Position numbers and translations under genes: made by a program
Notes under the pieces: generated by a model
Seen by the model: only the letters and a program-made list of their open reading frames with translations
The model's database searches: none
What the model was told of the DNA's origin: nothing
Assembly (NCBI GenBank): GCA_951406725.2
Contig: OX597821.1
Location: forward strand, 77,128,001-77,192,000
DNA from: Octopus vulgaris
Taxonomy: Eukaryota
DNA: 64,000 nucleotides
Direction: 5' to 3'
Shown here: one piece after another, positions 18,520 to 51,200 of the stretch
Position numbering within the stretch: the stretch's first letter is position 1
Layout of the letters: every line of letters begins with the position of its first letter

Positions 18520-18948
18520 CTAAACCGCTTGATTCAAGATTGAAACTGGAACCCATCTCTCCGCTTAAACGAGGTACTGGATAATATGCTGAACTAAATG
18601 GGTCACTCGATTTCCCGACGTCGTACTGTCCGTGTCTCGACTCAATCCGACTGCTCATTTGCGCTGGAGACTGCATCATAAAAGGTGCATAGTGCGGACT
18701 ATATCGGCTGGCGGCGGTTTCCATTGGTGAATAAGAAAAGGTGTGAGCTGGTTGCGGAGCGTAGCTGTGAGTCTGTGATGCAAGTGAGTAAGGCCATGTT
18801 TTATGGAAACCCGACATTGCATAAAGGGATGAATTCAAATAAGCATCTGATGGAAAATGGAAACTGTGTGGAAGACTGCTCGTCGAACTTTGGTATGCAC
18901 TATCCCAAAACGAGGCTGGAAACTTCCGATGACACATAAGCGGTACAT
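18520..18948 (-). CDS. vg: vestigial-like (Vg/VGLL) transcription cofactor, internal coding exon (429 nt, phase 1-1)
   Basis: Acceptor tttatttgtAG (AG at 18950-18949) and donor G|GTCAGT (intron starts 18519). Translates xVPLMCHRKFPASFWDSAYQ...SSGL, matching the RNFPxSFWNS motif found after the TONDU domain in Vestigial/VGLL2/3. It is followed by typical Ser/Pro/Tyr/His-rich sequence. Confidence 0.9.
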
Positions 18949-19064
18949 CTACAAATAAATAAAATAAATGTTTTACAGTTTAAGCACTCAGTTTATCTTA
19001 AGACCTCAAATAGATTGCTTACAATTTGTCCTGTCTTCCATATTTGGATTTAGATCAGGATCTA

Positions 19065-19583
19065 CCGTAAATCCTCGAGTATAGTCCGCCCTTGAGTATA
19101 ATACGCAGGGGATTTTTAGGGGGCTGTACCTCTGAAAAACCTAAACCTTGTGTATAATACGCACCCCTTCTCTAACTTGAGTCAAGGAGGTCTATATAGC
19201 ATCCTTGGTTTGTAAAACTGTATACGGTAATATCCTTTATTATTATTGTATATATAACAATGCAAACGTGTTGCTGTTTTGTGCATTTTGTTTGCAGAAA
19301 ATAAAGAAATAACAGTAATAACAGTAATAACGTTTAATAAATGTTGCTTATTGCAAGTTACGGATGGTTCTTTTATGACTTCATTGCTTTCAGGCTTAGC
19401 TTAAAGTATTTTCGCGCCCAACATTACAAAATGCGTCTGAATAAACATTGCCGGACAGCAAATAGAGACTCGGACATTGCTTAGAAAATAATTTTCAATT
19501 TTAACCTCGTATATAGTACGCACTAGGGATTTTGACCTTTAAATCTTGGGGAAAAAATGCGGATTATACTCGAGGATTTACGG
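19065..19583. mobile_element. Tc1/mariner(pogo)-type non-autonomous DNA transposon
   Basis: TIRs CCGTAAATCCTCGAGTATAGTCCGC / GCGGATTATACTCGAGGATTTACGG, with a TA duplication on both sides. Confidence 0.85.
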
Positions 19584-19759
19584 TAATTGTGATCCTGGTA
19601 GTACTTCTGTCCCCTTCCATTCGTCCAGGTCCACACTCTTCCATACAAACCTGCTAAGTGTGAACATCCCTTCAGTCACTTCAAACTAAGGTAACTGATT
19701 TTGCGGTGTCCTTTTTATTAACCTCAAACATTGTACCCCGAAAGTAAGCCCTAACATCC

Positions 19760-20110
19760 CAATCTCTTCTTCAGTTCTTTAGAAACAGGCTACAATGTGT
19801 CCTATCCCCAAAGAAGACAACCTCTCTTACCCTGCCAACTATTGCCCTATCATACTCACTTCTAATATCACTAAGTTACTGGCGACAACTGTTAACAACG
19901 ATGTCCTCTGACGTCTTGAATCTCACGCTTTCTCTAATGACCATCAATACGGTTTCAGTGAAGCCAGGTCTTCTGGTGACCTACCGGTGGAGGGCTCTCT
20001 ATTTGGAAGAATTTGATGAGAGCAATGTTGTTGTCGCCCTTGATAGCAACGATGCTTCCAGCTGTGTCTGGGATACGTATTGAGACTGTCTGCCTCTGAG
20101 ATCCACGCGT
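19760..20110 (-). mobile_element. decayed LINE 3' fragment
   Basis: The minus strand reads ...PPVGHQKTW..., similar to the RPxGRPxKTW motif at LINE ORF2 ends. It is heavily degraded. Confidence 0.4.
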
Positions 20111-20608
20111 TTATCAACGCTTCGAACATCAGCTTCCTATCATGTCGTACTATGGACGTTTTTGAGAACGAAACTAACGAAACCATTGAAGTATTATGGA
20201 GAACATTAAATATGTCTTTACACAATATATCGTTAAAGCATATCCAGTGAACGAGCTATATTCATACTGCATATCATAACATTGGCAGCAAGATTCACTG
20301 CAAACCGTTAATATTTCGACCTACAAAGCAGTAAAACAAAAGATTCAGAACATAATAAGTGTCAAATCACTATCTACTATTTTAAGAAAAGTTCACATTG
20401 GATAATCAGTCCTAGATATATATGACACATCTAAAAGGAGGGAATAGTGATTACACAAGGAATGCGTTTGATCATATGAGCATTCTGTCAAGCTGGAGCT
20501 GGTTTTAGATAACCCTATAATTAAAAAAAAAAACAGGGCTTTTAAGATTCTTGATAAATAGTTATACCTGGAAGTTGAATTCAGTAGACTCTACGTAAAT
20601 CCTGGATT

Positions 20609-20731
20609 TTGTGTTTGCCTTCTCGAATCTAGTATTTTGTGACGCCAAAACCCTAGCAGTAAAAAGGCAGGCTTAATGTAGCACCGTTATTAAGTGTGGG
20701 TCAGGCGCGGCACACTGTACAAACAGGTGCA
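20609..20731 (-). ncRNA. box H/ACA snoRNA candidate, copy A
   Basis: 5' hairpin: GCACC/GGUGC base, AGUGUG/CACACU upper stem. H box ACAUUA at 20679-20674. 3' hairpin: UGCCUUUUU/GAGAAGGCA base, CUAG..UUUUG/CAAAA..CUAG upper stem. ACA at 20614-20612, 14 nt after the upper stem. Confidence 0.75.
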
Positions 20732-21645
20732 TGAACGAGAGTATCTGGTTTTCAAAATAATAATGTAAAATATATACACACACACACACACATACACATA
20801 CACTCACACACATACATACACACACACTCACGCACATACACACGCGCGCGCATATACACATTGGTAGGTATTTAATAGAATTGGTAGAGTCTAAGATAAA
20901 ACCTACTGGGGTAATCGATTATGTCTCTTAGCATTCTGGTATCGAATTTCCCCCACCTCGGATCCTCTTATGTTTTTATCCTCCATTCCAGAGAATCAGC
21001 ACCAGTCACCAAGTCAAGAACTAAGTTCTGGGGTCGAAGTAATCAACTTTTAGCTAAAGGTTCATTGCTTTCACTAGAAATGTTTTGTCAGAATTGGTTC
21101 GGTTCTTCTGTAGCGATGTCATAAAATTACCATTTGGGCTGATGAAACAAACTAACAGTTTTGTCTTTTACTTGTTTCCGTCATTAGACTGCAGCCATAC
21201 TGGGGCACCTCCTTGAAGAATCTTTAGTCGAGCAAATCACCCCCAGTGCTTTTTGTAAGCCTGGTACTTATTATATCGGTTATTTTTGTCGAACCGGTAA
21301 GTTATGAGGGTGCAAACAAACCAACACTACTTGTCAAGCAGTAGTAGGATTAAACGCAGACACAAACACACAAACACACAAACACACACACACACATATA
21401 AAACTGTCCGACGAACGGGAACGTGAAACTCCGAGTAACAGCTTTTGTTATATTTCTGCTGCTTTTAAATAAAGCATATTACTCTACCTCTGGTATTTGA
21501 GTACTCTTTTTTTCCACCTTGTTTCACATTTATGTGCTTACTCCGGTATATATATATATTAATATTATATAATATTTTACTATAAAATTGGATTTAATCC
21601 TAAATTTGATTTTTCCCTGTAAATTTGGATTTATTCCCTAATATT

Positions 21646-21683
<38 letters not shown>

Positions 21684-22246
21684 GATAAGCTTCTTTCAGT
21701 TTCCATCTACTAAATCCATTCACGAGGCTTTGGTCGACCCGAGACTATAGTAGAACACACTTGCCCAAGTGCCACGTAGTGAGTGAGTATGCATCCGGAG
21801 CCACGTGGTTGAGAAGCAAACTTCTTCCTAAACAGCTACGCCTGTATAAAATTCTCTATATACACGGTCATGATGCTGGTGTTAATATTGATCGGTACAC
21901 AAACTGTATATGTAAAGAGAAATTTGAAAATGTCGTTGATTGATTGTTGACAGAACTGGTGTCGTCTCAAGAACTGAACTAATTACGAATAAGATCAAGA
22001 AGTGTTTAAATTACGAATAAGATCAAGAAGTGTTTAATCAAACGCTGAAACGAATGAAATTCATATCCTTATTAAAGAGGCACGATTCTGATGAAAGGAA
22101 CGAGGAAAGCCTTTGATCGTATTTATCTCATTGGTTAAGGATGGCCTGGACTTAACACAGAGGAAACAAAGAGATTTCAAGTTTCTTGTTACATGAGTAA
22201 ATGTGGACATTGGGTCTATACTTAAATGATGAATGGTATAAGATTT

Positions 22247-22364
22247 TTATGTCTACCTCCGAGAATCTAGTATTTTGTTTCACAAAACACTAGCAGGTAG
22301 AGAGGTAGAATTAGTATAGCACTGCCGTTATGGGTGAACTAAAAGTGATGCAGGGGTTTGTGCA
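22247..22364 (-). ncRNA. box H/ACA snoRNA candidate, copy B (deletion in 5' hairpin)
   Basis: H box AUACUA at 22317-22312. 3' hairpin: CUACCUC/GAGGUAG base plus a 12-bp CUAGUGUUUUGU/ACAAAAUACUAG stem. ACA at 22252-22250, 14 nt after the stem. The 5' hairpin lacks ~5 nt relative to copy E. Confidence 0.65.
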
Positions 22365-22858
22365 TGGAGAATGGTATCTTGTCTTGAAGATAAAAATCTA
22401 CAATATACACTCATACATACTCACGCACACGAGCAGTGGTAATTAGTTGATAGAACTGGTAGAGTGGCGAATAAAGATGTTGGTGCTTTTGGTTACGTCT
22501 GTTTAGGTTCTGGAATCAAATTCCTGCAAGGTCCACTCACACATTTCACCTTCCATTCCAAGCAAGAGGCACCAGTCGACGAATAAGTAACGAAATAATT
22601 GAAGCTATCAACTTCCGGCCAAATTTCATTACTTCGCAATTGTTTGGTTAAAATATATTTTCCTTAAAATGTTTGCTCCTATAACTTAATTAGTTAATTT
22701 AGTGAAAATTGTGTTAACTTTGGTAATAGTCATCAAATTTATCAAGGAAAATTATATCACTAATTATCAAACAAAGTAGCTAATTAGAAAATCCCTGTAA
22801 GACATGAAAATAGCAACTACATTGAGAAATAATGCTTATTGCCTCTGCTTACAATATA

Positions 22859-23093
22859 CAAGGTGGTTCAAAAGTAGGTATACAGTTATGGAAAAAGAAA
22901 ATACGTACAATACTCATTTATTTTTATTTAAAAAAATTAAAAGTTACGATAAAAGTATTATTATTGTTATGATAAATAACTGAACATTTCAAAAATGAGG
23001 CTAACTAATTTAACGTGCTAATAATCTTAATGGATTAAGTATAATAAACATTGATGTAATACATACTGTATACCTACTTTTGCACGCCGCCTG
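22859..23093. mobile_element. Tc1/mariner-type MITE
   Basis: Imperfect TIRs CAAGGTGGTTCAAAAGTAGGTATACAGT / ACTGTATACCTACTTTTGCACGCCGCCTG, TA-flanked, with an AT-rich interior. Confidence 0.7.
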
Positions 23094-23325
23094 TATATCG
23101 GATTGCATCGATAATCAGCTGGAGGAAGCGTCCTGCTGGGGTTAAAAACGGTTGTAACGTCGGTTCTTATGGAACAGCCATGTTTAAGTGGCAATGAACA
23201 TTACTTCTCAGTATATTTACTACTTTGATCTTTTATAGAAATTTTCTCACTAGCTAATTTGCTTGTTGCAAAATCAGTGACTGGTTGTTACTTATTTTTC
23301 TATATACTGCTATCACTAGGAGTAA

Positions 23326-23451
23326 AATTGTTTGCCTCCGAGAATCCAGTGTCTTGTGGCACAAAACACTAGCTGGTAGGAAGGAAGAGTTGCTATAGCA
23401 CCATTGTCGTTCCGGGTGGACCAAGGGTGGTACACTACATGGACTTGTGCA
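23326..23451 (-). ncRNA. box H/ACA snoRNA candidate, copy C
   Basis: 5' upper stem GUG.ACCA/UGGU.CAC. H box AUAGCA at 23396-23391. 3' upper stem CUAGUGUUUUGU/ACAAGACACUGG, fully paired through G-U on this strand only. ACA at 23331-23329. Confidence 0.75.
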
Positions 23452-24458
23452 TGGATGGGATTACCTTGTCTTGAAAGTAAAAATGTCCAATATACACACA
23501 GTTAGTAAATCACACATTTGCACGCGCACGCACATTGGATGGTGGTGAGGGTAGGAACTGAACTCAGGACGTAAACACTCAGAAGAAATACCACCAATTC
23601 TGCCAATGCACCTCCTTCTTCTACCGATTCTGCCAATGCACCTCCTTCTTTGGCCTTGCTATGAATATATCAACCAGTATTTATACTTTTCTACTTTTCA
23701 CACGGCCTGAAATTTTGAGGAAGAGGTTAGGGCTTCCTTCAGCTTCCGTCTACTAAATTCACTCACAAGGCTTTGGTCGGCCCAATACTATAGTAGAAGA
23801 CACTTGCTCTCAAGGTGCCATGCAGTGGGACTGAACCTTGAACCATGTAATTGGGAAGCAGACGTGTTACCACACAGCCACATCTGCGTTTATTTTGTAT
23901 AAGATTTCTTCATATACATTTATTGAATTAGTCTCATGAACTGAAACGAACTCTGATGGGATCAAGAAATCTTTAAAATATTCATTTTAACGAAACCATT
24001 GAAAGCATTGAATTTTAAACTGGAATTATAGTACGATGGGATTTTCAAGACAGAAATAGGGACTGTCTAAGGATCACATATTCCAGTAGTCAAGGATGAA
24101 CAGGATCTAAGCCCTTGGTTCTCAATTGGGGTCCATATGATAATCGGGGGTTACGCATAAAATTTTGTTGTTAAAATTTATGTGCAATAAACTGGTTTAT
24201 ACTTCTGCTATACACAAAATATTTTAATCATATTTAAATAGAATTCCTTATAATATTTGATTATGAAAACTATAATAGAGTTTCTTTAAAATTGAGTGGT
24301 AATGAGGGTCCAATGAACAAAATTGGAATCACAGGGGTCCATAGGTGAAAAGTGGCAGAGAACTGCTGGTCTAAATGATAAGATAAGGGAAAGAAGGGGT
24401 TTCTAGATTCTTGTTACATTGGATCCAAAAGTTTATTCTTAAATACTAAATGTAATAG

Positions 24459-24584
24459 AATTGTTTGCCTTCGAGAATCTAGTATTTTGTGACACAAAAC
24501 ACTAGCAGGTAGAAAGTTAGAGTTACTATAGCACTACTGTCGTTCTGAGTGAACCAAAGTTGGTACACTACATGGACTTGTGCA
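24459..24584 (-). ncRNA. box H/ACA snoRNA candidate, copy D
   Basis: 5' upper stem AGUG.ACCA/UGGU.CACU. H box AUAGUA at 24529-24524. 12-bp 3' upper stem. ACA at 24464-24462, 14 nt after the stem. Confidence 0.75.
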
Positions 24585-25892
24585 TGAACGGGATTATCTT
24601 GTCTTGAAAGTAATTATGTCCAATATACACACAAACACTAACACACATGTACATGCTGAGACACATTGCAAAATAGCTGATAGAATTGGTAGAGTGGAGG
24701 ATAAAGATGTTGTGTTTGGTTGTTTCTTTATGTTCTGGGATCAAACCATTCCTATTCCCTCTACTAATTCTTTGATAGTCCCTTCCACACAATGAGCACC
24801 AATCGAGATATAGAGATATAAGTACTGGAGTCCAAGTAAGCAACTTCTAGGTGAAGTTCCATTGCTTTCAATAGTTCAATAGTTCAACAAATATTTCCGT
24901 AAAATATTTGTTCTTATTATTGATAAGTTAATTTCTTGACAATACGTTAATTTCGCCATTGTCATCAAATTTATTGAGAAAGATTATTTTTCCAATTGTC
25001 CAAAGGACTTTGAAGTTGTTCATCGACATGTTACCTTCTTGAAGTAGGAAGAAATTTAAAAGGGTGGTTTGTTTAACCAAAATATTTAATATTGGTCTTA
25101 AAATTTTGGCACAAGGACAATAATTTCGAGAGAAGGGGTCAGTCAGTTACATGGACCCCAGTACACAGCGAGTATTTATTTTATCAACTGCGAAAGGATG
25201 AAAGGGAAAGTCGGCCCCGGCAGCATTTGTGTTCAGAATGTAAGGACGGACGAAATGCCGCTAAGTACTTTTTTCCGGAGTGTTAACGATTCTGCTCTTA
25301 ATTAAAATATTAATATTGATAATGCTTTGTTTAAACTTAATATTGGTTTCGAATCGGATGGATAAAAAATAAAATTGACCCCAGTGGGAACTGAACTCAG
25401 AACGTCAAATGTCGAACAAAATACTTCATAGGAATGCTTTATAGGATTTGGTTTGTTTCTAGTAATTTCTTGAAATTACCATTTGTGTCAATAAGACAAA
25501 TTAACATTTTATATAAAATTTCTTCATATACACGTTCTTGGAGCAAAATATATTAATGTTAATATTCATTATTACATATCTGTATGATTGAAAAAAAGAA
25601 TTGAAAATGAGAGGACTAATCGTTGACAGAATTAGTTTTAGCAAACAAACTAATCGTAAATAGAATCGACAAATGTTAAAACAATTGAAATTTAATATTG
25701 AACCATATTTCGTGCGCTTATTATCACTCATTACACTCATGATACAAATACGTTGCATCATATCAATTGACGTTGATTGACGTTGATTATGGGCCTAATA
25801 GACGGAAGAGATACAAAGAGGCTTCGAGATTCTTGCTGCACACAAAATCTGGACATTGGGTCTATACTTAAAGACTAAATGAAATAAGACTT

Positions 25893-26015
25893 TTACGTTT
25901 GCCTCCGAGAATCTAGTATTTTGTTTCACAAAACACTAGCAGGTAGAGAGGTAGAATTAGTATAGCACTGCCGTTATGAGTGAACCAAAAGTGGTGCACT
26001 ACAGAGGTTTGTGCA
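25893..26015 (-). ncRNA. box H/ACA snoRNA candidate, copy E (ACA box mutated to ACG; possible pseudogene)
   Basis: Same fold as the other copies. H box AUACUA at 25963-25958. The terminal box reads ACG at 25898-25896, and the 3' basal stem has an A-C mismatch. Confidence 0.6.
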
Positions 26016-26085
26016 TGGAGGAGAGTATCTGGTCTTGAAGATAAAAATCTACAATATACACTCATACATACACATATACATATTT

Positions 26086-26520
26086 ATTAACATAAAGCTG
26101 AAGATCAGCGAAAAAGAGAATACCTACGTTGAACTATTGAGAAATCTGCAGTTACTCTATCCAAACTACAAGTTCATGTTTATACCTGTAATTAGGCTTA
26201 TCAAAACCAGAAAGGAGAATGCTAATTCGAAGACTACAGATCCAACCTATCACTGGAACTGTAATAATCTGTAAAACTTTCCAGAAGTTTATCATCTAAG
26301 TATATAAGAGCATGTCTAGACATGCAACTATATGCATGAGAATACATACATAAAAATCTGCACATACATACATACATACATACATACATACATACATACA
26401 TACATACAAAAATAATTTGTTGCTGATGTTGAAATTCCAATAAAGGAGTCTTGGGTCTAGGTTAGAAACCGGCTCTTTCTCTTTTGGTAAGAAATCTTGA
26501 AATAAAACTGAACAATGACA
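26086..26520 (+). mobile_element. 5'-truncated RLE-type LINE 3' end in (CATA)n; copies at 30341-30730+, 57160-57270-, 61412-61497-
   Basis: Encodes KISEKENTYVELLRNLQLLYPNYKFMFIPVI. The 30.3-kb copy reads QIQSITGTAKICKTFQKFII*. The 3' UTR ...GAAATTCCAAT...CTAGGTTAGAAACCG...AAGAAATCTTGAAATAAA is shared. Confidence 0.7.
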
Positions 26521-28300
26521 CACATACATACATACACACAATCACGTTCGTGGGAAGAAAACAGAATCTGAAATAAAATATATTTTATTATTTAGTTACG
26601 TCCCTTAAAGTTCTGAATGCAAGCCCTCCCCCCAGACCTATCCCTATTTTTCTTTACATTCTCATTTGATTGATAAAGTAAATACCAATTGAAAAATAAG
26701 AATGCAGATAGAAATAATCAATTATATCCTAGAAGCCGAGGCCCTAGGGTGGCCATAGTCCAAAGAGTGAAAGCTGTTAAAGAATTGAAGAAACGGTGCC
26801 ATCTAGAATAACAGAATGGTTCTGAAAGCTCTTCCCTCTCTACTGCTAATGTAAATATGTTACTCATTAAAATGATTAGACCAAATCGAAGACCAAATAT
26901 CAAGTCAAATGTTTTACTGATCAATTAGAGATCAATCTGATCTGCTTTGTGTCTTGGTTGAAATGGTTATAGACTTATGCTTTTTATGCTGAGGTATTTT
27001 TTTTTTTTTTTCAGATCACGTAATCTGCTAATATTACACGAAACGATTCCATCGAGGTCGACATTGCTTTTCATCCTTCCGGGGTTGATAAAATAAGTAC
27101 CAGTTGAGTACTGGGGTCGATGTAATTGATTCCCTAACTCCCTCCCTCCCTCAAAATTGCTGGCCTTGTGACAAAATTTGAAACCGATATTACTTGAAAC
27201 GGTTGGCGGCGAGCTGGACGAATCGTTATAGCATGCCGGGGAAAATTATTGGCGACAATTCGTTTGTCTTTATTTTTCGAGTTCGAATTCTGCTTAGGTC
27301 GACTGTCTTCCATTTTTTTTTCTCATTTTTTTTTTGTGGAATGAGGTCTATAAAATAAGAACGAGTTGAGCACTGGGGTCGATGTAATTGACACACCCTG
27401 AATTTGCTGAAGTTGCTGGCCCTGTGCTAAAATGTGAAAGCAATATTAATCGAAACGGCAAAATGCTTAATAGCATTTCGTCCGTCTGTATGTTCTTGCC
27501 CAAAGTGCATGCAGTGGGCCTGGACGCAGAACCATGTGGTTAGAAGGCAAACTGCTTACCACACTTTGCTTTCTCGCTCATTTTCACTTTGGAAATATTA
27601 ATACACAAATTTTTCTGTGATTAATTCTCGTCTTAAGATTGGAAAAGATTAATGAACTACGAAGAAGGAGAGAAATTGTGCGAATAGTTTGCGAAGTAGT
27701 CATGTTCAACAAACTGTCTGACTTTTCAAAGAATTAATGTTTGTGCAGAAATTCAGTGATCACTAACAGGGTGAAGTAGTTTTAAGAAAATCCTGTTTAA
27801 CGAAAATATTGAACGTATTGAAATTTGAATTTAAAATCTTGGCAAAGAAAGAGTGATACAGAGATGGCTATTTACTTAGTAGTGCCGCCGTTGCAATAAA
27901 CGGAGTTTTATTCAACCGAGCGGCTAATTGCAACATCAATGAATGTTCAAACATCGTTTTTCTATATCAGTAGTAACGGCTTTTGACTTGTGGTTACTAC
28001 TGAGAACATGCTGCTAACGAAGCGCAATGAGACAGAAATGCACATCTAGCATTTTCACGGCCATGCTGGATGAGTTCTCTCTGATACAGATATATTTCTG
28101 TTTCTAAACACAGTACGTTCATAAGAGATATCATCTCGGGACAAATATCGCAGAAAACTTGCTTTATTCGTGGTGTATTTCCAATAAGTTTGATATGAAG
28201 ATAGCTATTTTAATAAATATTGTTTCTGTTGCACATAATGGAATAATATATCTTTACCTTACATTCAATATTTTATTTTTGAATACTAAGTGAAAGGGAT

Positions 28301-28432
28301 TTTTGTTTACCCTCTCGAATCTAGCATTTTGTGACACAAAGCACTAGCAGTAAAAAGGTAGATTTTTATGTAGCACTGTTGTTATGTTGTAAACCATCAG
28401 TAGTGTGGTGGTGCACAACATACACGAGTGCA
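28301..28432 (-). ncRNA. box H/ACA snoRNA candidate, copy F
   Basis: 5' hairpin: GCACU/AGUGC base, UAUGUUGUG.ACCA/UGGU.UACAACAUA upper stem. H box ACAUAA at 28371-28366. 3' base UACCUUUUU/GAGAGGGUA. ACA at 28306-28304, 14 nt after the upper stem. Confidence 0.75.
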
Positions 28433-29251
28433 GAGATGAAAATTATCTGCTGATTGAAACTATAAATGTGCCATATGTAAATAGACGCATGCACACAGAG
28501 CGTCAGAGAGACGTTAAACTTGGTACAGTCTCAGGTAAAATGTTTTGTAGTGACTGGAGCCTTCCATATAATTTCAGAAACCAAATACCACCCGTGTACG
28601 CTTTTCTTTTCATCCTCTTTAGCTGGATAAAATAAATACCAGCTGAATGAAAAGTACAGAGTTCGAAACACCTACATTCTAGAATCCTGGGGCACCGAGC
28701 GACCGAAAGCAGTTAAAAAGGGCAAGATTAAAAGAAAGAAAAGCATTCTGTATTTCCCCACTTTTTTTTCTTTCAAACACGAAAGCATGTGGCCAAGTGG
28801 TTAGGGTGTTGCAATCACAATCACAAGATTGTGGTTTCGATTCATGGACCAGGGGATGCGTTGAACTTTTGAGCAAAACACTTCATTTCACGTTGTTCGT
28901 CTTCACTCATCTGTAACTTGGTAATTCTGCGACCAACTGACGTCTCATTCAAGGAGAAAGTTGTGATCTCGGTCATATATATGCCAGGGTAACCGGGTAA
29001 CCCGCCCCATGAGTCCAAGCACCCAAGATAGTAATGTCCAGGGGTGTATGTTGAGGAGGATTCTTTCAAATAGAAACATTTAATAGTTTTTTGGATAAGT
29101 GGCGAGATGGCAGGATTATTACTGTGCCGGGAAAAATATTCTTAGCGACAATTCTTCCGACTTTACACACTGAGTTCAAACACCGCCGGTTCGACTTCTA
29201 CCTTTCATCCTTTCGGGTCGATAAAATAGGTACCAGCTTGAGTACTGGGGT

Positions 29252-29289
<38 letters not shown>

Positions 29290-30311
29290 ACGACAATGTT
29301 AGCCTAGTGCCAAAATTTGCAACTCAGACTTTTGAACTGGCAACATCGTTAAAGCTTAGACCAAAACACCTTCAAGTAATAGGTAGACTCATTACGTTTT
29401 GGGTTCAAATCCTATCGTGGTGATGAACTTCGCATTTCATCTTCCCTGGATCGATAAAGTAACGATCAAGTATGATGTTGATATAATTGACTGTTTCCTT
29501 CCTTCTGCTAAAAGCCTTAAGTAAATGTAAGAAGTTAAGAGTTGTGTGTCGAAAGAATGGTTTGAGTGGAAGCGTTTAATTTAGTATTTAGTTAGGGTAG
29601 TTTAAATCCTGAGTTCACTTACTTTACTTTTCATTCATTCGTGATTGATAATATAAAATATCTGTCAAGTATTAAACCCAATGTGTAATCGATTATATAG
29701 TGCTCACAAATTCGAAATCGTATGATTTAGAAATCTTTAAGTAGATGGAAAATTCAAAAGAATGTATACATACATACGAACATATATACATACATACATA
29801 AGAACATACGTACATACGTGGTGGTGGCTGCCCTCTCGTTATCGAGTATTGCCATTGCATGAAGCTTAATCAATGTTGTTATCATGCAATGCCTGTGCAA
29901 GAAGATTTTTTTTTAAAGTGAGGAAAGGCTGTGCACTGAGTCAATCTCATTCACCAAGTAACAACAGCCATAATCCGAAAAGAAGAACAAGTCAACATCA
30001 TCGGTAACCACTGAGCCGCAGGTTTTATGTCGGAGTTATCCCAGTTACCTGAGTTACCTTCTCCTAGAAGGATGCCCTATCAAAGGATAGGAGTTCTTCA
30101 CTTCCAATGGTTTAACCGCGCGATCGGGTATTCAGCCCGATTATTTCTATGTCCCCGCCCATGATACATCCTTAAGACATTTATTGGATGGCCGTTGACT
30201 CTCTAGAGTTCCTCCACCCTTTGACGGGTTTTGTTTTTCACCCGCAGGGTGTCCAATACATACATACATACATTATACATACATACATACATACATACAT
30301 ACATACATACA

Positions 30312-30342
<31 letters not shown>

Positions 30343-30734
30343 GGGATGTGTAACATACTGCCTAATTACCAATCTTGAGAAATTAGGCTTATCAAAACTA
30401 GAAAGGAGAAAGCTAATTCAAAGTCTACAGATCCAATCCATCACTGGAACTGCTAAAATCTGTAAAACTTTCCAGAAGTTTATCATTTAAATATATATGA
30501 GCATGTCTAGATATGCAACTATATGCATGAGAATACATACATAAAAACATACAAATCTTCACCTACATACATACATACATACATACATACATACATACAT
30601 ACATACATACATACATACAAAAATACCTTATTGTTGATGTTGAAATTCCAATGAAGGAACCTTGTATCTAGGTTAGAAACCGTTTCTTTCTCTATTGGCA
30701 AGAAATCTTGAAATAAACTGAATAAAGGCATACA

Positions 30735-30768
<34 letters not shown>

Positions 30769-32688
30769 CATGCCTACATACATACATAAAGATACATTAT
30801 TCATCGGTACATATTTGTATATTTCAAGAAAATTTGAAAATGTAAATATCTCATAAGTCACTGTACCTTTAGAGTTCTTTAGAACAATTTCGAGTCAAAC
30901 ACAAGTCAGTCTCTACCAAACAAAGTAGTTTACAACATATTTCTGTTCAAAAGGAATTAAATTTTATACATATGTTTCAGCTGAAATTTTATTGTATTGA
31001 ATAATTTGGTTTAAGCAAATGCGAATTAATGGCGTATGTCTTAAATTCCTGACATAAATATCCGAAGTGGGAGAGTTTAAATGGCACACATTTCAAAAGT
31101 CAAAGAAAAGCTAACTGTGTGCTTAACTACCAACCAAAAAATAATATTTAGCGAGCGATGCTTCAGCAACAACAACAACAAAAAAAATCTTCCAAAGATT
31201 TATTTGACGTCAGAATTAAAACACTTTCAACGACTTTATATTTACCGTGTGAAAATTTAAATTTTGAAAAACAAATTTTAAAACATATTTAAAGAACATC
31301 TTAATACGTGTTGACAATAAGACGGCGAGATGGCAGAATCGTTTAGCAGGGCGGGGGAAAGATGCTCCGCGGCATTTCGTCTGAGTTCAAATTCCGTCGA
31401 GGTCGACTTTACTTTTCATCATTTCTAAATAAGTACCAGTTGAGCACTGGGGGCTGATGTAATCGACTTAATCCTTCCCTCGAAATTGCTGGCCTTGTGC
31501 CAAAATATGAAACCAGCATTTTTTCTGAAGCTATATCTTTCTTGTGAATTTATTTGTAATAAATTTTGTACAAGCTTTGCAGTTTTAGAGTGAGTAGTTT
31601 AGTCGCTTCTGTCGACCCCAGTGCCTGACTGGTACTTTATTTTATCAATCTTGAAACGACAAAAGTAAAGTTAGCCTCGTCGGGATTTGAAATCAGAGCA
31701 TAAAGAGACCGAAAATTTATTCGCAATAATATAGAAAATTGTATTGTTAAATATTCTTAAATTACAAATGTTTCTCTATTCTATTTTCATTTGAAATTCT
31801 GTCTCTGCGCAATTGGATAAGACAAAAGTCTATCACATGTAATACGTCTGGAATATTTTACACTCATTCTCCGGTTAGATAGGCTAAACTGGTGAATCTT
31901 AGCGATACAGGAAACAATAACTCATAAATCATGATTTGGTGTTCCAGTAGCATAAATTCGCTGATTTTCATTGTCTGAGACACTAAGTAAATGAACAAAT
32001 GCTTGCATGAATGAGCAGTGAATGAGTAACATATTCATTGGATCGTTGATTCATCACTGGAATCAAAGTCCTCATGTAGTACATCTGATCATCTCACCAG
32101 GAAGGGCCCACGTCTCTAATAACTAAGATGCGATTTAGACGCAACTTCCTTTAAATGAATGAAACAATTGTTGATAGTACATCACTCGTTTCATACATCA
32201 ATAAATTGTGACGAATTATATGACAATACTATGTGATGCGGCCATTTGAGATTTGTGTTAATTCTACGCCATGAAAATTTCTGCTTTTCGATTATGATAA
32301 GTATTATGATGTGGTGTTTTCCACAGTTATAAGGTCTGGCCACTGTTGTGACTCTAGCTGCTATATCTACTCTTGTAGCCACGATATTTCTTGGTAACAG
32401 GTAGAGTGTATCTTTTCTATACCGGAATGGTAATAAACTGCTTCGTCTATCGCTGATAGCTCTGCAAGACACCAACTTTGAACCGTTTACCTTGACTGTT
32501 ACTCGAATTCGACTATAACACATAACTGACACTTAACTCCAACTGAGAACTCGTACGACTCTACAACGACTGGCACATGATTCCCTGTACTGGTTGACGT
32601 CGTCTCACTTTATAGTGGCTGTGCCATACCACTTGTCGCGTGGGAAGGCTGTACCATTTCCACAATTACAATAAGTTACACTTTAAAT

Positions 32689-32967
32689 CAGTGTTCCTCA
32701 ACCGGGATACATGTGGCCCTTAGACCCCCATATAACCCGTGGGGTCCTTATAAGATTTTGCTGTTAAAATTTATCTGCAATAAACTGGGTCTACTTCTAC
32801 AATGCACAAAATATTCTAACGATTTTTTAAATATAATTCCTAATATTTAATTATAAAAATATAACAGTTTTTTTAAAACATGGAATGGCTAAGAAAATCG
32901 ACCCAAGTAAAAAACGGGAGCCAAAGATGTCCACAGGTAAAAAAAAAGATATAGTCGAGGACCACTG
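32689..32967. mobile_element. hAT-like MITE (second copy ~24113-24368)
   Basis: TIRs CAGTGTTCCTCAAC / GTCGAGGACCACTG. The interior 'ttttgttgttaaaatttatgtgcaataaactgg' is shared with the 24.1-kb copy. Confidence 0.65.
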
Positions 32968-33528
32968 TTTTATATGGATTCCACAACCGTGAATTTCACC
33001 TCTAAAGTGGCGGGCACGTAGAACAACCTATATGATTCAGTCCATGATTGTTAAGAATATTTATCACAAACCTGCTTCGTTTATATTCACCACAAATAAC
33101 TATCTAGAATAATCTTCCGCATCGTATTACATAATGTATGCTGGCTAAATTACTTCACATGAATTACCTTCGTAGTTATCCCAAAACTCAGCAGCGATCA
33201 GGCAACACCATAAAGACACCATTTCGACATCTTAAAACTATAACACTCTACTGATAACACAAATATAGTTTTTTTAAAAATTATTTTTGGTCTTGTTTTT
33301 GTTGCTGAATCTCGGATTACTTGTTTTGAATAATTATTTGTTGAAGAATGAAGTACAAACAGGAAATAGTTCCGCTAATTTTTTTTTATAAAACATTTTG
33401 ACCAACATATAGCATATGTGTATTTATATTTGTATATAAGTGAAGTGTGTTTGCACACACACACATATTTATATGTATGTATATGTATGAATGTGAATGT
33501 GCAAACACATGTTTGTAAATATTCACAT

Positions 33529-33598
<70 letters not shown>

Positions 33599-36500
33599 AT
33601 ACATATATACATATATATATGTATACATATATATATATATATAATTTTTTTCAGTCAACAGAGAAATAAGAAAATTTGACATATGCAGACATGTAGGTTT
33701 ACACACACACACACACATACACACACACATACACACACACAAACACATAAACAGATTTCCATTCCAAGCAATATTTCGGTAGCAATATTTTCCAGACATT
33801 TTTCGTTGAGACAGTGGAAATCGTTGATAGACATCGCTTCATTTCACTTTAGCAGTCACAAATATATAGAACTGTCACAGCTTCCAACGAAAACCAGGAA
33901 AAACAAACGATGTTTTCAATAAAACAAGCTGGTGACAAGCAATTTAGCGGAAAATATCTAAAACTGCTGACTGAATACAAGATGGCACTCAGTAACTCAC
34001 ACACACACATACAGAAGATTCTCATCGCAAGTGTTTGTTGTTGTTTTTTGCCTCTGTCTTTTTCTATCTCTCTTATTCTTTCTGTCTGTTTCTCTCTGTC
34101 TATATCTCATAATTTTCTTCTGACATGACAAAGTACTTGTGTTGAGGGAACAAACAACACGCAGTAGAAACTAATTTTTGTATGAGTAATTGTTTAAATC
34201 TGTTCGTTTGGATTAAATTTTAGCTGAAACATCCCCACCCCCATCTCTAGTTTGTAGAACAATAACGGAAAGTAGTTAATATGCTATGCTAAAACTCTTG
34301 TTATGTTCCCCAACTCCCATCCCACCTTTCTGTTTTATTAAACACCTTTCAAAACTATGATATATTAGATCGTTAAGGCGGTAAAATGGCTGAATCGTAA
34401 GCACGCCGGGCGAAATGCTTAACGGCATTTCGTCCGTCATTACGTTCTGAAATCAAATTCCGCCGAGGTCGGTAAAATAAATACCAGTTGAGCACTGGGG
34501 ACGATGTAATCGACTTAACCCTCCACCGAAATTGCTGGCCTTGTTATTACCAACATATTACTTAAATCGTTTGTATTTTCATCTCGAGGCTGTCAACGGG
34601 GGTAAGGCTACACGCGTCATCTTTCGCAGGTTTTCCGACTTTGGAGAGAGGAGGAGAGAAATCTATCGTTAGATTAAGGACTTTTCAGCCCTCCACTAAT
34701 CCACTAACGGCATCTAAGGTCTAGATGGTTGTGTCGAACCAAGCAGCGGATAGCTCTACCGCCTAAGAACATTCGCCCCGCTTCCGCATGGTTTCGGTAA
34801 CGAGATTTTGATGGACTCGAAGCTTCCAAACATGGTGCGCCGTGGAATCGAATTGAAAGTCATGTGATTGCAAATCAAACTTAGTTACATGGACATGCAT
34901 TTCCATTTTTACAATTAGAATCACCCTGTATCACCAGAAGACGTTACACAACATTCCTTTACAGAAACAGGGATACAAGACACAATTCCAAAAACAACTG
35001 AACAAACAATACATTAACAATAACAGAATCCTTCGAATGATTTCTGGAGCATTAGGAGACGTAACTCGGAGATCAGAGAATCACTTCGGATCGAACCGTT
35101 ACTTCTCCGCATTCAAAGGTCACGTTTCCCATACTCTGTGTATGTTTCTTTTACTCGTTTCAGTCATTTGACTGCGGCCATGCTGGAGCACCGCCTTTAG
35201 TCGAACAAATCGACCCCAGGACTTTTTCTTTGTAAGCTTAGTACTTATTCTATCGGCCTCTTTTGCCGAACCGGGGACGTAAACACAGCAGCATCAGTTG
35301 TCAAGCGATGGTGGGGGAACAAGCACAGATACACATACACACACACATGACGGGCTTCTTTCAGTTTCCTTTTACCAAATCCACTTAAAAGGCTTTCGTT
35401 GGCCCGAGGCTATAGTAGAAGACACTTGCCCAAGGTGCCACGCATTGGGACTGAACCTGGAAGCATGTGGTTGGGAAGCAAGTTTCTTACCACACAGCCA
35501 CTCCTACGCCTATGTGATTAGATTGTCACAGGCAAAAAATCGCAAGACGGACTTGAAGCCAAGCTAATGGGCAGAATGTCTAGAGAACGAGATGGATAGG
35601 TAATATCCAGGGTGTCAGCTGGTCACACTTGGGAAATCCAGCCGGAAAGTATAACGACAGTTGCTTCTGATAGAAGCGTAGATACCTGAGGACTCTACCC
35701 ACCACAAGCTGCCCAGGAATAGTGGGAGGTGAAACGGATGGATGGAAGTTTATTTAGGGATTCTTCATAAACAAGTAGAATTTAAAACTTTCTTCCGTGA
35801 TCCTTTGCACGTGAAGTGTTGCTTTGTTGCTTTCTTTCGTATACAATACATAAAGCGTAATTGTTGAAACTTCCTACGTCAGTGTAACTTATACAAAAAA
35901 TGAAAGGTTAGACGAATAAAAGAGCTGTAAATCCTAAATAATATCGCTTTTAATTAACAGTAACATCAGTTTGGGAGAAACACGTGCGAAACACGAAGCA
36001 TAGATTATTGCTCAGGAAGTCGCTTGATTTATATCCAGAATAAATAATACAAGTATCACTGCTCGCGTTGCTGGGTTGGCAGAATCGTTAAAGCGTCGAT
36101 CAGAATACCTTGCGGTATTTGTCCCTGCCCTTTACATTCGAATGCTCAATTCCCACCAACGTTAACTTTTTCCTTTTATTTTGTCGGGGTCGCTAAAATA
36201 AAGTGTCAGCCAAGTACCGGTGGGGTGGGGTCGATGGTATCTATTAATCCCCTTCTTTTAAAATTGCTGACCTTAGGTTCAAATCAGGAGCAAGTCCTCT
36301 TGCTGGTCACGATCCATAGAGCTCCGCCTGGGAAATGTTTTCTTTTAGCACCACCATATTGTTTTATCCTTATACTTGCTTCAGTCATTAGACTGCGGCC
36401 GTGCTGGAGCCTTGAAGAATTTTAACTGGACTAATCGAACCCAGTGCTTACTTTCTTTCTAAGCCTGGATCTTATTCTATCGGTCACTTTTGCCGAACCG

Positions 36501-37454
36501 CTAAGTTACGGAGTCGTAAACACACCAACACCCCTTGTCAAGAAGTGTTGGGGGAACCAAGCTTAGATGCAAAGGTATACCCATGAACAGACAGACAGAC
36601 ACATGCACACACGTGTGTGTGTGTAAAAAATGTTGGTTCGTGTTGCCATCAAAGGGTTTCGGAGTCTTCGAACGTGGAGGCCATCATATGGGTAAGAGGA
36701 AAACGAAACGCTTGAATTTAGATCATTCTGAACTGCTACACATTCGCCACAGGCAACATTTATATCCTATCCTAGAAGTAGGAAGAATATTTGCTTGCCT
36801 CACTAGGAATACCAGACTCCCAGATTTATTAAATATCCAGATGGAGCGTCGAACTTGGATACTCAGAAAGTAAAGACAGACGGCGTTCAAACGTTTCTGC
36901 CAATTCATCGATTTAGTGCCTGTATATATTATAACTTTGTTTCACCATTGTAATTTCTTACCAATTTCTATAACATTAGAACTATGTATGCTTGTATGTA
37001 TGTGTATATGCATGTATGTGTGTGTACATGTGTGTGTGTATATGTGTGTATTCATGTATGTATGCATCTATGTATGTACGCATGTATAAATGCATGTATG
37101 TATGCATGTATATGTGCATATCTCTATGTATGTACGTATGTATGTGTGTATGTTTGTGTATAGGTGTGCATGTATTCAAGGCACTGCCTGGAATTGAACT
37201 CACAATCTTGGAGTTAGTAGTCCGCGATCTTAACCATTACGCTGTATGCCCGAAACGTTGAGTTAACAACAAACAAGATGATGACACATATCCGTCCAGT
37301 GAACAGAATTCCTCATCTCTAGAATATAGAACAGTTTACTTGATATTTGGGATTCTATTGGTTTGGGTTACCATAATCAGAATAAAACCGGCATTTATCG
37401 AAAAGGCAAACTTTTGTCTGTAGATCCCGTTCAATTTTGAAAATGAAACAAATT

Positions 37455-37870
37455 TCTATTTCTTTACTACCCACAAGGGGATAAACACAGAGAGGACAAA
37501 CAAGGACAGACAAACGGATTAAGTCGATTATATCGACCCCAGCGCGTAACTGGTACTTATTTAATAGACCCCGAAAGGATGAAAGGCAAAGTCGACCCTG
37601 GCGGGATTTGAACTCAGAACGCAGCGGCAGAGAAAATACCTATTTCTTTACTGCCCACAAGGGCTAAGCACAGAGAGGACAAACAAGGACAGACAAACGG
37701 ATTAAGTCGATTACATCGACCCCAGTGCGTAACTGGTACTTAATTTATCGACCCCGAAAGATGAAAGGCAAAGTCGACCTGGGCGGAATTTGAACTCAGA
37801 ACGTAACGGCAGACGAAATACGGCTATGCATTTCGCCCGGCGTGCTAACGATTCTGCCAGCTCACCGCCT
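37455..37870 (-). mobile_element. SINE family 2 with tandemly duplicated 3' two-thirds
   Basis: Segment 37457-37640 repeats at 37640-37820; only the second unit has the head. Confidence 0.8.
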
Positions 37871-38409
37871 TGAAAATGAAACGTATTTCAACAAACAATT
37901 ATTCAATGTGTGCTATCATTTTTGGGGAGACCCGGTGTGTAAGAGCGTGTGTGGTCGTTTCCACCTATCACCTTATCCTCTGATATTTATCAAGTGAATC
38001 ACTCTAAGGTGGTAACTCTGCTTATGAATATCAAAACAGAAATATAAATATTCAATTTTTGTTTTCCCATTCATTTTGGTTGAGGGAAACGAGTGCCTTA
38101 AGTCAGACAGCAACAACTGACACATAGATTATTGGTGCGTATCTGATTCAGACATTTCATTCTCTTTCTGATTATAAACAAGATTAGGAGAAAGGTTTAT
38201 AAGGAAGGTCTATGCCTAAAACTTTGAGAGAGAATCTTTAGCGGCGAAAACATTTTGATTCATTCCATATTTTGTTGACAAACAGCATATGAGACCCTAT
38301 GCTAACTTTCCATAAATCTGTATCTGATTATTTCCGTAATGTTAGGTATCTTAATAGAAATCAGTTTATCTGGAATTAGCGCTTTTGATCAACTGACTTC
38401 GTAATACAC

Positions 38410-38830
38410 ATGGCTGTGACACAACACCTGAAAAGCAGCCAAGAAATGAAAGTGGCCACTTTTGACAGCAAATACCTTTGGAAAATACCAAGCATCAAAT
38501 GGAATGATTTTATCAGCATTGAGGAGGTCAGAAGAGTAAACCAACGCCCAGTGGTCATCACCATCTGCAGACACCAACTGAATTGGCTAAGAACTATCAC
38601 AAGACTCTCAATGAACAGACTTACCACTGAAGTCCTTTAGTGAAACCCCCAGGAGCAATGATGTAGGGGACAAACCAAGATTAACTGGCACTGGACAATC
38701 GGTAGGGACTTTCAGCTAGTAAACCTATGATGGAATGATACATTGACAGTGGATGCTGACTGATTCTGCTGGAGGGTTTTGTCAGCCCCGGATGTCACCC
38801 GACGCAGGAGCAGCTAAGTCTGAGTAAGTG
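38410..38830 (+). mobile_element. LINE (RTE/L2/CR1-like) 3' fragment
   Basis: Peptide FDSKYLWKIPSIKWNDFISIEEVRR...RHQLNWL...RL..EVL resembles LINE ORF2 C-termini. Stops are present. Confidence 0.6.
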
Positions 38831-40931: not shown

Positions 40932-41152
40932 AGGCGGCGAGCTGACACGCCGGGCGAAATGCGTAGCCGTATTTCGTCTGCCGTTACGTTCTGAGTTCAA
41001 ATTCCGCCGAGGTCGACTTTGCCTTTCATCCATGCGGGATCGATAAATAAAGTACCAGTTACGCACTGGGGTCGATGTAATCGACTTAATCCGTTTGACT
41101 GTCCTTGTTTGTCCCCCTCTATGTTTAGCCCCTTGTGGGCAGTAAAGAAATA
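40932..41152 (+). mobile_element. SINE family 2, young insertion with 22-bp target-site duplication
   Basis: GGCGGCGAGCTG...GAGTTCAAATTCC...GGGCAGTAAAGAAA, with TSD TATATAGGATTAAATATTTATA at 40910-40931 and 41153-41174. Further copies (approximate): 13068-13268+, 15712-15940+ (nested in a family 1 copy), 31321-31515+, 34377-34545+, 37455-37870-, 43759-43970+, 50058-50500+ (two copies), 55153-55386-, 63590-63780-. Confidence 0.9.
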
Positions 41153-42125
41153 TATATAGGATTAAATATTTATAGCGTGGTTTCTACTTTCTATATGAAG
41201 GTGCGTTGTCTAGTGGTGAGGATGCTGCACTTACGATAGCAAGGTCGTGGTTTCGATTCACAGGTCGGGCGGTGCGTTGTGTTCTTGAGCAAAATACTTC
41301 ATTGTACGTTGCTCCAGTTCAGTCAGCTGTCAATGAACAGACTTGAACAGACTAGCTTCACAGACAGGAGAAATGGTTGGAATCTCGTCACAGAAACCAG
41401 GAACCGTCCTTAGAACTCTAGACAGTAATTACACTTTTTTTATTCCACACTCTCAATCATTCTGCCGATCTAGGTGGAACTTAATATAAGGAAGAAAAAC
41501 ATAAGTTTGAAACCCCATTGTGTAATATATAGAGATTTGTATAAGAATTATGAACGCACGTAGCTGAATGTTAAGAAGTCTGCATTGCGAGGTCATGGGT
41601 TCGATTTCACTGTGAGACACCTCGGGGACTGTTTGGCTATGATTTTTATTATGGCCTTGAGTTCTTGAGTGAAAATGGATCGACGGAAATTGTGGACGTC
41701 CGTTGAATGTATTCCATCAATAACTTAAAGGAGTTTGCTCTTGTTAGACTGTGTCATGTTCATTATACTTGTGTATTACATAAAGGATATACAAGTCTGT
41801 TGGAATATTCAGCCGCGTACTGTATGAGCCTATAAGCAGTTGTTTATCGAATAAGAATGCGAATCGTAAACCAGAGGCAGTTGATCGAGCACAAACGAAT
41901 CGTAAGCCGGAGAAGGTCTTTACATATCCTATCATGTTGAAAAGGAATGATACATCAGACGGTGTAACACTGGATTTGTGAATAAACGAGGATGTCATGG
42001 ATGGAATTCTTTTCAACATAAAGCTCACAAACGGTTATATAACAATAACAGATTATAATCAATGAAAATATAAACTCAGTTTATAATGCAGAAAGTCGAT
42101 TAAACTAGGGAGATTTTGTGCCTTG

Positions 42126-42185
42126 TTGAAAATTAGCTGATTGAAAATTAGCTGATTGAAAATTAGCTGATTGAAAATTAGCCGA
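42126..42185. repeat. 4 x 15-bp tandem repeat TTGAAAATTAGCTGA
   Basis: Directly visible in the sequence. Confidence 0.9.

Positions 42186-42432: not shown

Positions 42433-42503
<71 letters not shown>

Positions 42504-45622: not shown

Positions 45623-45655
<33 letters not shown>

Positions 45656-47748: not shown

Positions 47749-47787
<39 letters not shown>

Positions 47788-51164: not shown

Positions 51165-51200
<36 letters not shown>

Follow-up and report, generated by a model that had tools for sequence, protein, structure and literature searches.

Six similar elements, arranged in tandem within one intron of a vestigial-like gene of Octopus vulgaris and originally predicted to be box H/ACA snoRNA-like genes, raise the question of whether they represent genuine pseudouridylation guides and, if so, which RNA they would modify from such a host.

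Layout of the array and its host intron

The analyzed window (a stretch of 64,000 nt) contains all six predicted paralogues on the minus strand across 20609-28432, each 118-132 nt long: copy A at 20609-20731 (H box 20674-20679; ACA 20612-20614), copy B at 22247-22364 (H box 22312-22317; ACA 22250-22252), copy C at 23326-23451 (H box 23391-23396; ACA 23329-23331), copy D at 24459-24584 (H box 24524-24529; ACA 24462-24464), copy E at 25893-26015 (H box 25958-25963; ACG instead of ACA at 25896-25898), whose nearest paralogue is B, and copy F at 28301-28432 (H box 28366-28371; ACA 28304-28306). The hinge hexamers were recovered as listed in the original prediction (ACAUUA, AUACUA, AUAGCA, AUAGUA, AUACUA and ACAUAA in A through F) and conform to ANANNA in all six copies, with the three A positions invariant and all three N positions variable in the alignment. 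The terminal box, expected 14 nt downstream of the 3' upper stem, lies precisely there in six of six copies, and its sequence is ACA in five of them.

The sense location in a vestigial intron was likewise borne out. The host is a Vg_Tdu gene, which we take to encode a developmental cofactor of the VGLL family, and spliced contigs from two studies (X1, X5) join the exons flanking the intron. Immediately downstream of the array lies a vestigial-like exon (18520..18948, minus strand), in which a match to the TEADIR3 omega-loop is weak (E 0.003, below cut-off); splicing joins it to a TDU exon (G000:C8:77196188-77196280) as well as to another exon in the vicinity of window positions 12809-12838. 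The host intron (18949..64000 in the window, minus strand) is ~49.2 kb long, its 5' end lying ~4.1 kb past the window, and the array occupies its final 1.7-9.5 kb. As a side observation, none of the contigs of X1, X5, X9 and X14 lies over copy A, and those of X9 and X14 do not cover the host exon; this was not counted as evidence.

Genome-wide, all detected matches are confined to the array, as revealed by BLAST (6/6 with copy D and 3/3 with copy F as a query) and by an exact pattern search (6/6). Neither nhmmer nor cmsearch yielded additional copies in the window plus 30 kb of neighbouring DNA (including 10 kb at a second Vg_Tdu gene), the genome-wide scope being that of BLAST and pattern searches and the covariance model being applied to the window and these 30 kb only, with distant relatives possible elsewhere. 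A metagenome pattern scan returned no matches. The depth of bins over the cores is 1.5-10 in X12 and X13, as compared to 1e4-1e6 for repeat bins. A dispersed high-copy transposon, an origin that would have refuted the original prediction, is thus contradicted by the confinement of all matches to the array and by the low bin depth; a SINE or MITE was rejected for the same lack of dispersed copies. Local tandem duplication of one probable H/ACA gene inside the host intron would account for the six copies.

Fold, strand and class

The consensus fold of the copies is a hairpin-hinge-hairpin-tail. Single folds give this shape for A, D, E and F and partly for C; in B, the 5' hairpin, whose upper stem had been described as kept, is disrupted by the deletion of 5 nt in this assembly. 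Compared to shuffled sequences, minus-strand folding gave z from -1.3 to -4.2, with five of six copies below -2.5, vs. +1.3 to -3.5 and two of six copies for the plus strand, although copies B, E and F fold well on the plus strand too. The predicted G-U pairs specific to the minus strand are well represented there (11 distinct G-U states vs. four A-C states). The basal-stem covariation (UGCC/GGCA vs. UACC/GGUA) stands for A, B and F and fails for C, D and E, in which the pair is mismatched. Covariation is modest overall: both sides changed in 3 of 28 pairs, and the observed values were reached by 6-23 of 500 shuffles on four of five measures and by 226 of 500 on the fifth. At the same time, 14 of 23 distinct derived stem-pair states are still paired, as compared to 6.7-9.2 expected under neutral change (p 0.0015-0.036), i.e., the stems are kept beyond neutral expectation despite roughly 25-35% divergence.

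The core was expected to be better conserved than its flanks, and this holds for the downstream 60 nt (0.73 vs. 0.56) and not for the upstream 60 nt, which are nearly equal to the core (0.69; random 0.47); the core outscores both flanks in 12 of 15 copy pairs. By hairpin, conservation is 0.80 on the 3' side and only 0.65 on the 5' side. Similarity between copies extends ~190 nt into the upstream and ~100 nt into the downstream flank and includes a common upstream element of 45-50 nt (24585..24634, minus strand, in the case of copy D). A search for an snRNA-type promoter upstream of the copies gave nothing beyond low-complexity matches, and a closing stem between the flanks, tried as a candidate, was no better than random.

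The H/ACA architecture alone is no proof of identity, because a crude H/ACA detector recovers just four of the six copies and fires elsewhere (~14 unrelated firings in 128 kb of both strands, or ~1 per 10 kb of strand, several of them microsatellites). This background frequency, along with the plus-strand folding of B, E and F and the conserved upstream flank, would be compatible with a duplicated intronic element of another kind (enhancer module, editing/splicing hairpin, transposon remnant or miRNA-like stem) whose resemblance to H/ACA RNAs is accidental. We consider such an element very unlikely in view of the invariant H-box A positions amid variable N positions, the fixed 14-nt spacing, the 11:4 strand bias of G-U pairs, the restriction to a single locus, a stem shape unlike that of a pre-miRNA, and a best target that coincides with a known pseudouridine (see below). 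Pre-miRNAs have a long near-continuous stem with two 22-nt arms and a loop of at least 8 nt; this class was ruled out, since a 3-nt loop closes an upper stem of only 12 bp, which stands on an internal loop of 4-7 nt.

The copies are similar to H/ACA guide snoRNAs in size, two hairpins, ANANNA hinge, a tail with ACA at a distance of 14 nt from the pocket, a sense location within an intron of the host and predicted bipartite complementarity to rRNA, but differ in the presence of six copies in one intron and of no Rfam family over cut-off. Indeed, the Rfam comparison suggested along with the original prediction produced no match at gathering level in the 64 kb; sub-threshold matches (13, 1 and 11 in separate runs) were not convincing, although those on the minus strand of C and F include four H/ACA families (SNORA15, SNORA40, SNORA35 and SNORA48; E 0.05-1.1), in keeping with the class. 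An H/ACA scaRNA is disfavoured by the lack of a CAB box (UGAG in none of the six copies). SNORA35, a brain-restricted H/ACA RNA in HTR2C, resembles the array in being located in a large intron of a gene with tissue-restricted expression; it is, however, a single-copy RNA, and its match on F (14.6 bits, E 1.1, at a cut-off of 39 bits) is no sign of homology. Drosophila clusters with several H/ACA genes per intron exist. Cis-duplicated snoRNA clusters in chicken and in Drosophila mfl also contain tandem paralogues in one host gene (PMC2653536, PMC1821038); unlike the array, the mfl cluster has one gene per intron and a ribosome-biogenesis host. In animals, introns with a single snoRNA are the predominant arrangement, and the majority of human H/ACA RNAs share their host with no other (PMC11028025). 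Both the host of the array and the presence of six copies per intron are unusual, and a constitutive modification would be poorly served by a host gene that encodes a developmental cofactor. The openly accessible literature that we covered contained nothing on cephalopod H/ACA clusters or a vestigial host.

Predicted targets of the 3' pocket

Pairing was scored against the 18S, 28S and 5.8S rRNA of this genome and U2 (1,424 uridines), and repeated with U5 and U6 added. For the 3' pocket of copies B-E, the top site in both sets was 18S U2389, with 12 bp and a single mismatch, which falls on position two of the left arm and adjoins the target. Taken alone, this site scores weakly, with p of 0.04 for C (the best fit among copies), 0.13 for D and 0.19 for B/E when U5 and U6 are included, and of 0.02, 0.11 and 0.12, respectively, in the set without them. 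U2389 corresponds to human Psi1643 at an offset of 746 (fragment 1639-1648 in PMC6182160, Table S5); this mapping rests on sequence context because a seven-base fingerprint of human 18S 1625-1703 had its maximum elsewhere, at an offset without relation to this one (7/7, vs. 5/7 at offset 746). The human site is 96% modified (PMC6182160, Table 1), and known pseudouridines of this kind constitute at most ~8% of uridines by our estimate. The left arm of B-E has C opposite both G residues at which this 18S differs from the human text and, therefore, matches the rRNA of this very genome.

That the best target of B-E is an rRNA site both conserved and constitutive points to an ordinary housekeeping guide. 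The guide interpretation is supported with respect to H/ACA architecture, sense orientation within the intron of a vestigial-like host, amplification in place and an origin other than a dispersed transposon; its tissue-specific aspect is not favoured by the nature of the best target. Based on the sequence evidence, the array is most likely a new, locally amplified family of H/ACA rRNA guides, predicted chiefly for the Psi1643 equivalent in 18S, a reading to which we assign about even confidence; the family is likely of an ordinary kind, and what is unusual is the gene that hosts it.

Vertebrate SNORA41 (ACA41), which presumably guides human Psi1643, shares this predicted target position with the array. 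Its chicken orthologue GGgACA28 targets 18S-1598 (PMC2653536); from the offset of 42-45 nt seen in adjacent rows of the same table, we place this position at human 1643. In SNORA41, the 5' hairpin guides and the host is EEF1B2, in contrast to the 3' hairpin and the Vg_Tdu host here. Membership in the SNORA41 family was rejected (no match, whether at the gathering threshold or with E values as high as 10; different pocket and host), and the array is a functional analogue at most.

In copies A and F, the 3' pocket is of another type, and the two types (A+F vs. B-E) match the tree (support 82/87). The best fit of A/F, with the top score overall, is 28S U4017 (14 bp, mismatch adjoining the target, p 0.003-0.007), which is human U4271, unmodified in human; in both copies, the longer basal stem is a competitor of this pairing. 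Because their pairing at 18S U2389 is loose (three unpaired bases and three G-U pairs) and better at 28S U4017, A and F may have drifted to this second predicted site. Its identification with human Psi3899 was ruled out (3899 maps to 28S 3512, and the site is human 4271), and a supposed link to yeast Psi2416 proved wrong; the yeast mapping was ambiguous and is left unused. As a site common to all copies, 5.8S U73 has a score of 20 vs. 19 (p 0.04), which speaks against the preferred target; it is human 70, which is not a known pseudouridine; Psi69 of 5.8S was ruled out, the fitting uridine being the next one. No good site for the 3' pocket was found in U2, U5 or U6. For the 5' pocket, there was no target common to the copies and no pocket was definable in B and C; the role of this hairpin is probably confined to structure.

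The A/F fit to 28S U4017, being the best of all, the agreement of pocket types with the tree, and the presumed developmental role of the host would suit real H/ACA RNAs with other jobs, such as host-coupled, tissue-restricted guides of a lineage-specific rRNA site (28S U4017, 5.8S U73) or of mRNAs. Alternatively, two copies could cap a sno-lncRNA spanning them, since two snoRNAs in one intron can yield such RNAs (PMC11028025). With four of six copies pointing to a conserved constitutive site, we regard these other roles as unlikely.

Lesions, possible decay and the host gene

Several copies carry lesions in the assembly that are not shared by the contigs of the two close relatives with which it was compared, where the canonical state is found in B, D and E. 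The 5 nt missing from the 5' hairpin of B are present in runs X1, X12 and X13; the basal pair of D, broken at 24517, is paired in X12 and X13; and the ACG of E is ACA in an X12 contig, which itself lacks 11 nt at 25938. Some copies are probably spares in decay, namely B and E as they stand in the assembly. X1 contigs span B (22209-22469) and C (23139-23494) plus flanks, as unspliced intron or DNA would, and contigs as such cannot reveal RNA ends.

These lesions, the flank similarity (~190 nt upstream, 100 nt downstream) and the mismatches adjoining the target are what one would expect if a guide gene had landed in the intron, undergone tandem duplication as a segment of at least 400 nt and mostly decayed, with a working gene located elsewhere. 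Pairing changes adjoining the target sharply cut activity (PMC6800473), although single mismatches are tolerated (PMC6049503), and under a third of annotated human snoRNAs (485/1541) are expressed (PMC10234308). A mostly dead array is nevertheless doubtful: the stems are kept beyond neutral expectation at the observed divergence, genome-wide BLAST and pattern searches detected no parent copy outside the array, and a narrow genome pattern describing a perfect guide for this 18S site returned 22 matches vs. 32 for the control, none with an H/ACA fold.

For the preferred reading of a functional rRNA-guide family, the copies would likely be cut from the intron, by exonucleases that free them from the lariat and by some cutting between copies, and assembled with dyskerin, NOP10, NHP2 and GAR1; the predicted 3' pocket would then guide pseudouridylation of rRNA, chiefly at 18S U2389. 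In a more far-reaching version, which we consider improbable, a TEAD cofactor gene would have captured the only guide in the genome for an 18S pseudouridine that is conserved and lies in the head-neck region of the 40S subunit, and amplified it sixfold within a single intron, with two pockets adapted to the changed 18S site of this lineage and to a new 28S site, respectively, leaving vestigial-expressing cells with differently modified ribosomes.

If this modification has no source other than the array, pseudouridylation of rRNA at a site of tRNA movement would depend on a developmental gene, providing a test case for specialised ribosomes; if its copies are uniform or dead, it would be an ordinary duplicated snoRNA cluster. 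The layout also raises the question of how one 49-kb lariat releases six guides. Cephalopod snoRNAs are known mainly through Rfam homology (PMC6962438), to which the array contributes a probable H/ACA family so far lacking annotation, with a specific, testable predicted target; in the giant squid, 41 H/ACA loci were reported (PMC6962438).

A six-copy array in an intron of a vestigial-like gene

The array of six paralogues is a real feature, extending over 20609-28432 on the minus strand with a spacing of 1.1-2.4 kb. Its cores (118-132 nt, with the end set three bases beyond the ACA box) occupy 20609-20731 (copy A), 22247-22364 (B), 23326-23451 (C), 24459-24584 (D), 25893-26015 (E) and 28301-28432 (F), all on the minus strand. 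Their alignment (51 of 144 columns invariant) yields a hairpin-hinge-hairpin-tail consensus fold, with an invariant 5' basal stem (GCAC/GUGC), the ANANNA hexamer one base after it (three A constant, every N varying), and a 3' hairpin in which an internal loop separates the 12-bp upper stem from the basal stem. The original prediction of six related minus-strand copies with this hinge is borne out in 6/6, and its 14-nt distance from the 3' upper stem to the box also holds in 6/6, although the ACA letters are present in only 5/6. Folding z-scores for A-F are -2.6, -4.1, -1.3, -2.5, -4.1 and -4.2 on the minus strand vs. -0.7, -2.2, +1.3, -0.5, -3.5 and -3.2 on the plus strand.

The copies are not a dispersed element, and the high-copy transposon fragment raised earlier as a counter-case can be set aside, since genome-wide matches are confined to the array and depth is unique-like. 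BLAST of the 2.8-Gb genome (which skips common words) returned six matches for query D and three for query F, every one in the array. A 20-place exact pattern taken from the 3' end matched six times, again always in the array (reversed control, 3). Bin depth over cores B-E in X12 and X13, DNA-like sequencing runs from two other, closely related organisms, is 1.5-10, as for unique intron, vs. 1e4-1e6 for interspersed-repeat bins. The tree groups B with E (support 100/99) and splits A+F from B-E (82/87).

Pfam Vg_Tdu has two matches genome-wide, both on the window's contig, one of them on the minus strand, 4.2 kb past where the window ends. This TDU exon ends in a phase compatible with the exon that starts at 18948, and contigs of runs X1 and X5 (two studies) span 18520-18950 and then match the TDU exon end and an exon near 12809; the array is therefore sense to the vestigial-like gene and inside its intron, as predicted. 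It occupies the last 1.7-9.5 kb of this ~49.2-kb intron, and no further exon between the two flanking it is spliced in in the X1 and X5 contigs. The second gene (G000:C8:76826577-76826666, minus strand) lies ~370 kb from the first on the same strand, so that the two vestigial-like paralogues form a tandem pair; a scan of 10 kb at that locus turned up no member of the RNA family. Directly upstream of the exon that starts at 18948 lies a MITE-like 520-bp repeat (19063-19585; 27-nt terminal inverted repeats, 96% complementary) with high depth in RNA contigs, and downstream of the vestigial-like exons a low-complexity block (5500-6100; GC skew 0.64, a strong strand skew) holds long His/Thr/Pro-rich open frames.

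Stem conservation, lesions and transcript contigs

Across A-F, 94% of 167 stem cells are paired and 3 of 28 stem pairs show two-sided changes. On four measures, 6-23 of 500 column shuffles reached the values observed, and on a fifth 226 did so, an outcome that is suggestive only, the sequences being related. With derived pair states counted once each, 14 of 23 are still paired vs. 6.7-9.2 expected if substitutions were random and 50-70% of them transitions (p 0.0015-0.036). G-U outnumbers A-C among stem pair states (11 vs. 4), in agreement with the earlier remark that apparent mismatches mostly read as G-U pairs on the minus strand. Against this, a crude H/ACA-layout detector also fires at ~14 unrelated places on both strands of the window. 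We regard it as quite improbable that the copies are not snoRNAs, and their H/ACA ancestry as very probable (a judgement overlapping our other estimates).

Similarity between copies is 0.73 in the core (3' hairpin 0.80, 5' hairpin 0.65), 0.69 upstream and 0.56 downstream (random, 0.47), a weaker contrast with the flanks than had been claimed; the duplicated unit extends beyond the core. On the minus strand, the ~45-50 nt upstream of each copy (e.g., 24585-24634) form an element whose conservation between copies nearly equals that of the core. It includes a weak 6-bp hairpin and an AG ~17 nt ahead of the core; in copy C, a perfect UACUAAC lies ~62 nt upstream. A short motif family, D13, is kept ~60-85 nt downstream of four of the cores (A, B, D and E; e.g., 24386-24419), and no pairing between it and the upstream element was found.

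Copy B lacks, at 22348, 5 nt present in three independent runs, X1, X12 and X13; the loss, an allele or an assembly error, breaks the 5' hairpin. X12 and X13 also carry in copy B a base that makes a pair in the 5' stem, and pair the broken basal position of copy D. A divergent X12 contig on copy E, with an ACA box and 11 nt missing from the 3' hairpin, may be another paralogue. Among the differences listed, drawn from single contigs at depth 4-10, the pattern fits a functional family in which spare copies decay; the rival reading, that the copies as such are decaying, is unlikely. X1 contigs cover B and C with flanks and an X5 contig covers part of D with flank; these are unspliced intron or DNA, and ends, strand and level are not readable from contigs. 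Processing of at least one copy to RNA is likely, a judgement that overlaps the others.

Predicted rRNA targets of the 3' pocket

All uridines of this genome's 18S, 28S, 5.8S, U2, U5 and U6 were scanned with the 3' pocket, the guide loop of the second hairpin, placed at the fixed 14-nt register. 18S U2389 (AACGAGGAAU-UC-CCGGUAGG) is the best-scoring site for B, C, D and E, with a 5-bp right arm and a 7-bp left arm with one mismatch (p 0.02-0.12 vs. dinucleotide shuffles; 0.04-0.19 in a scan that admits three unpaired bases and adds U5/U6). The guide rules in PMC6049503 set a minimum of 8 bp, with tolerance for single internal mismatches and for as many as four unpaired bases; for snR34, PMC6800473 reports activity abolished by changes adjoining the target or one extra unpaired base. 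By sequence correspondence U2389 is the human Psi1643 site, which is 96% modified (fragment m7G-A-A-U-Psi-CCCAG, 1639-1648; Taoka et al., PMC6182160). This adds weight, because no more than about 8% of the scanned uridines can be equivalents of human Psi (estimated from roughly 105 rRNA sites). The sequence after Psi is CCCAGUAAG in human vs. CCCGGUAGG here, and opposite both changed bases B-E carry C, A and F carry U.

The best site of A and F is 28S U4017 (p 0.003-0.007). Its human counterpart is U4271, an unmodified base two positions away from Psi4269, and pairing at U4017 must open the longer basal stem of A and F; these copies fit 18S U2389 only by leaving three bases unpaired and using three G-U pairs (score 19). 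One 5.8S uridine pairs 8 contiguous bp with five copies and ranks first among the sites shared by all copies (score 20, p 0.04); 5.8S Psi69 was rejected as the common target, the fitting uridine being human position 70 instead. The 5' pocket gave no site shared by the copies in the target scan. Host-coupled guides with other targets, a reading to which the A and F sites lend something and the B-E fit does not, would be a minority possibility; 18S U2389 is somewhat favoured as the true target (again an overlapping judgement). A search for a separate perfect guide of this site gave 22 hits vs. 32 in the control, chance level, none properly folded; its narrow pattern would overlook guides that are spaced differently or carry mismatches.

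In copies D and E, the 5' hairpin (24530-24550 and 25964-25981, respectively) holds a 12-nt stretch that matches the 18S complement at 10/12 positions, just upstream of the human Psi1347 equivalent (read by eye). The stretch lies 18-21 nt away from the H box and lacks a proper left arm; this match is likely chance. The rDNA array is assembled at G000:C20:23958968-24074368 (period ~18.4 kb), with strongly expanded, G+C-rich 18S (2,643 nt) and 28S (4,890 nt), and C stands at some positions that are Psi in human (e.g., equivalents of 28S 3713, 3797 and 4266). The genome also holds dozens of near-intact copies of 5.8S, U2 and U6 at scattered places (a rough first look gave 57,000-398,000 candidates), and U5 forms clusters on contig C25, which suggests many RNA-derived repeats.

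Known guides and a predicted route of processing

SNORA41 is alike in predicted target but has its pocket in the other hairpin and resides in another host gene (EEF1B2; bioRxiv 10.1101/2024.12.12.628228); with no match of its Rfam model to the copies, they are not members of SNORA41. Nor are they scaRNAs, because the CAB box that marks H/ACA scaRNAs is absent from A-F.

We give roughly even chances to the copies being processed intronic H/ACA guides for 18S U2389, as in the lariat-release mechanism. Host pre-mRNA would be spliced and the lariat debranched and trimmed, with H/ACA core proteins protecting one or more units; freeing inner copies would need cuts between units, else sno-lncRNAs would form (PMC11028025), and the 3' pocket would then place U2389 for dyskerin. 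The abundance of a snoRNA often does not follow that of its host (PMC10234308), so a restricted host is no proof of a restricted guide. Ribosome modification tied to vestigial expression is improbable. Duplication of snoRNAs in cis is already known (PMC2653536, PMC1821038); unusual here are six snoRNA-like copies in one intron of a developmental gene.
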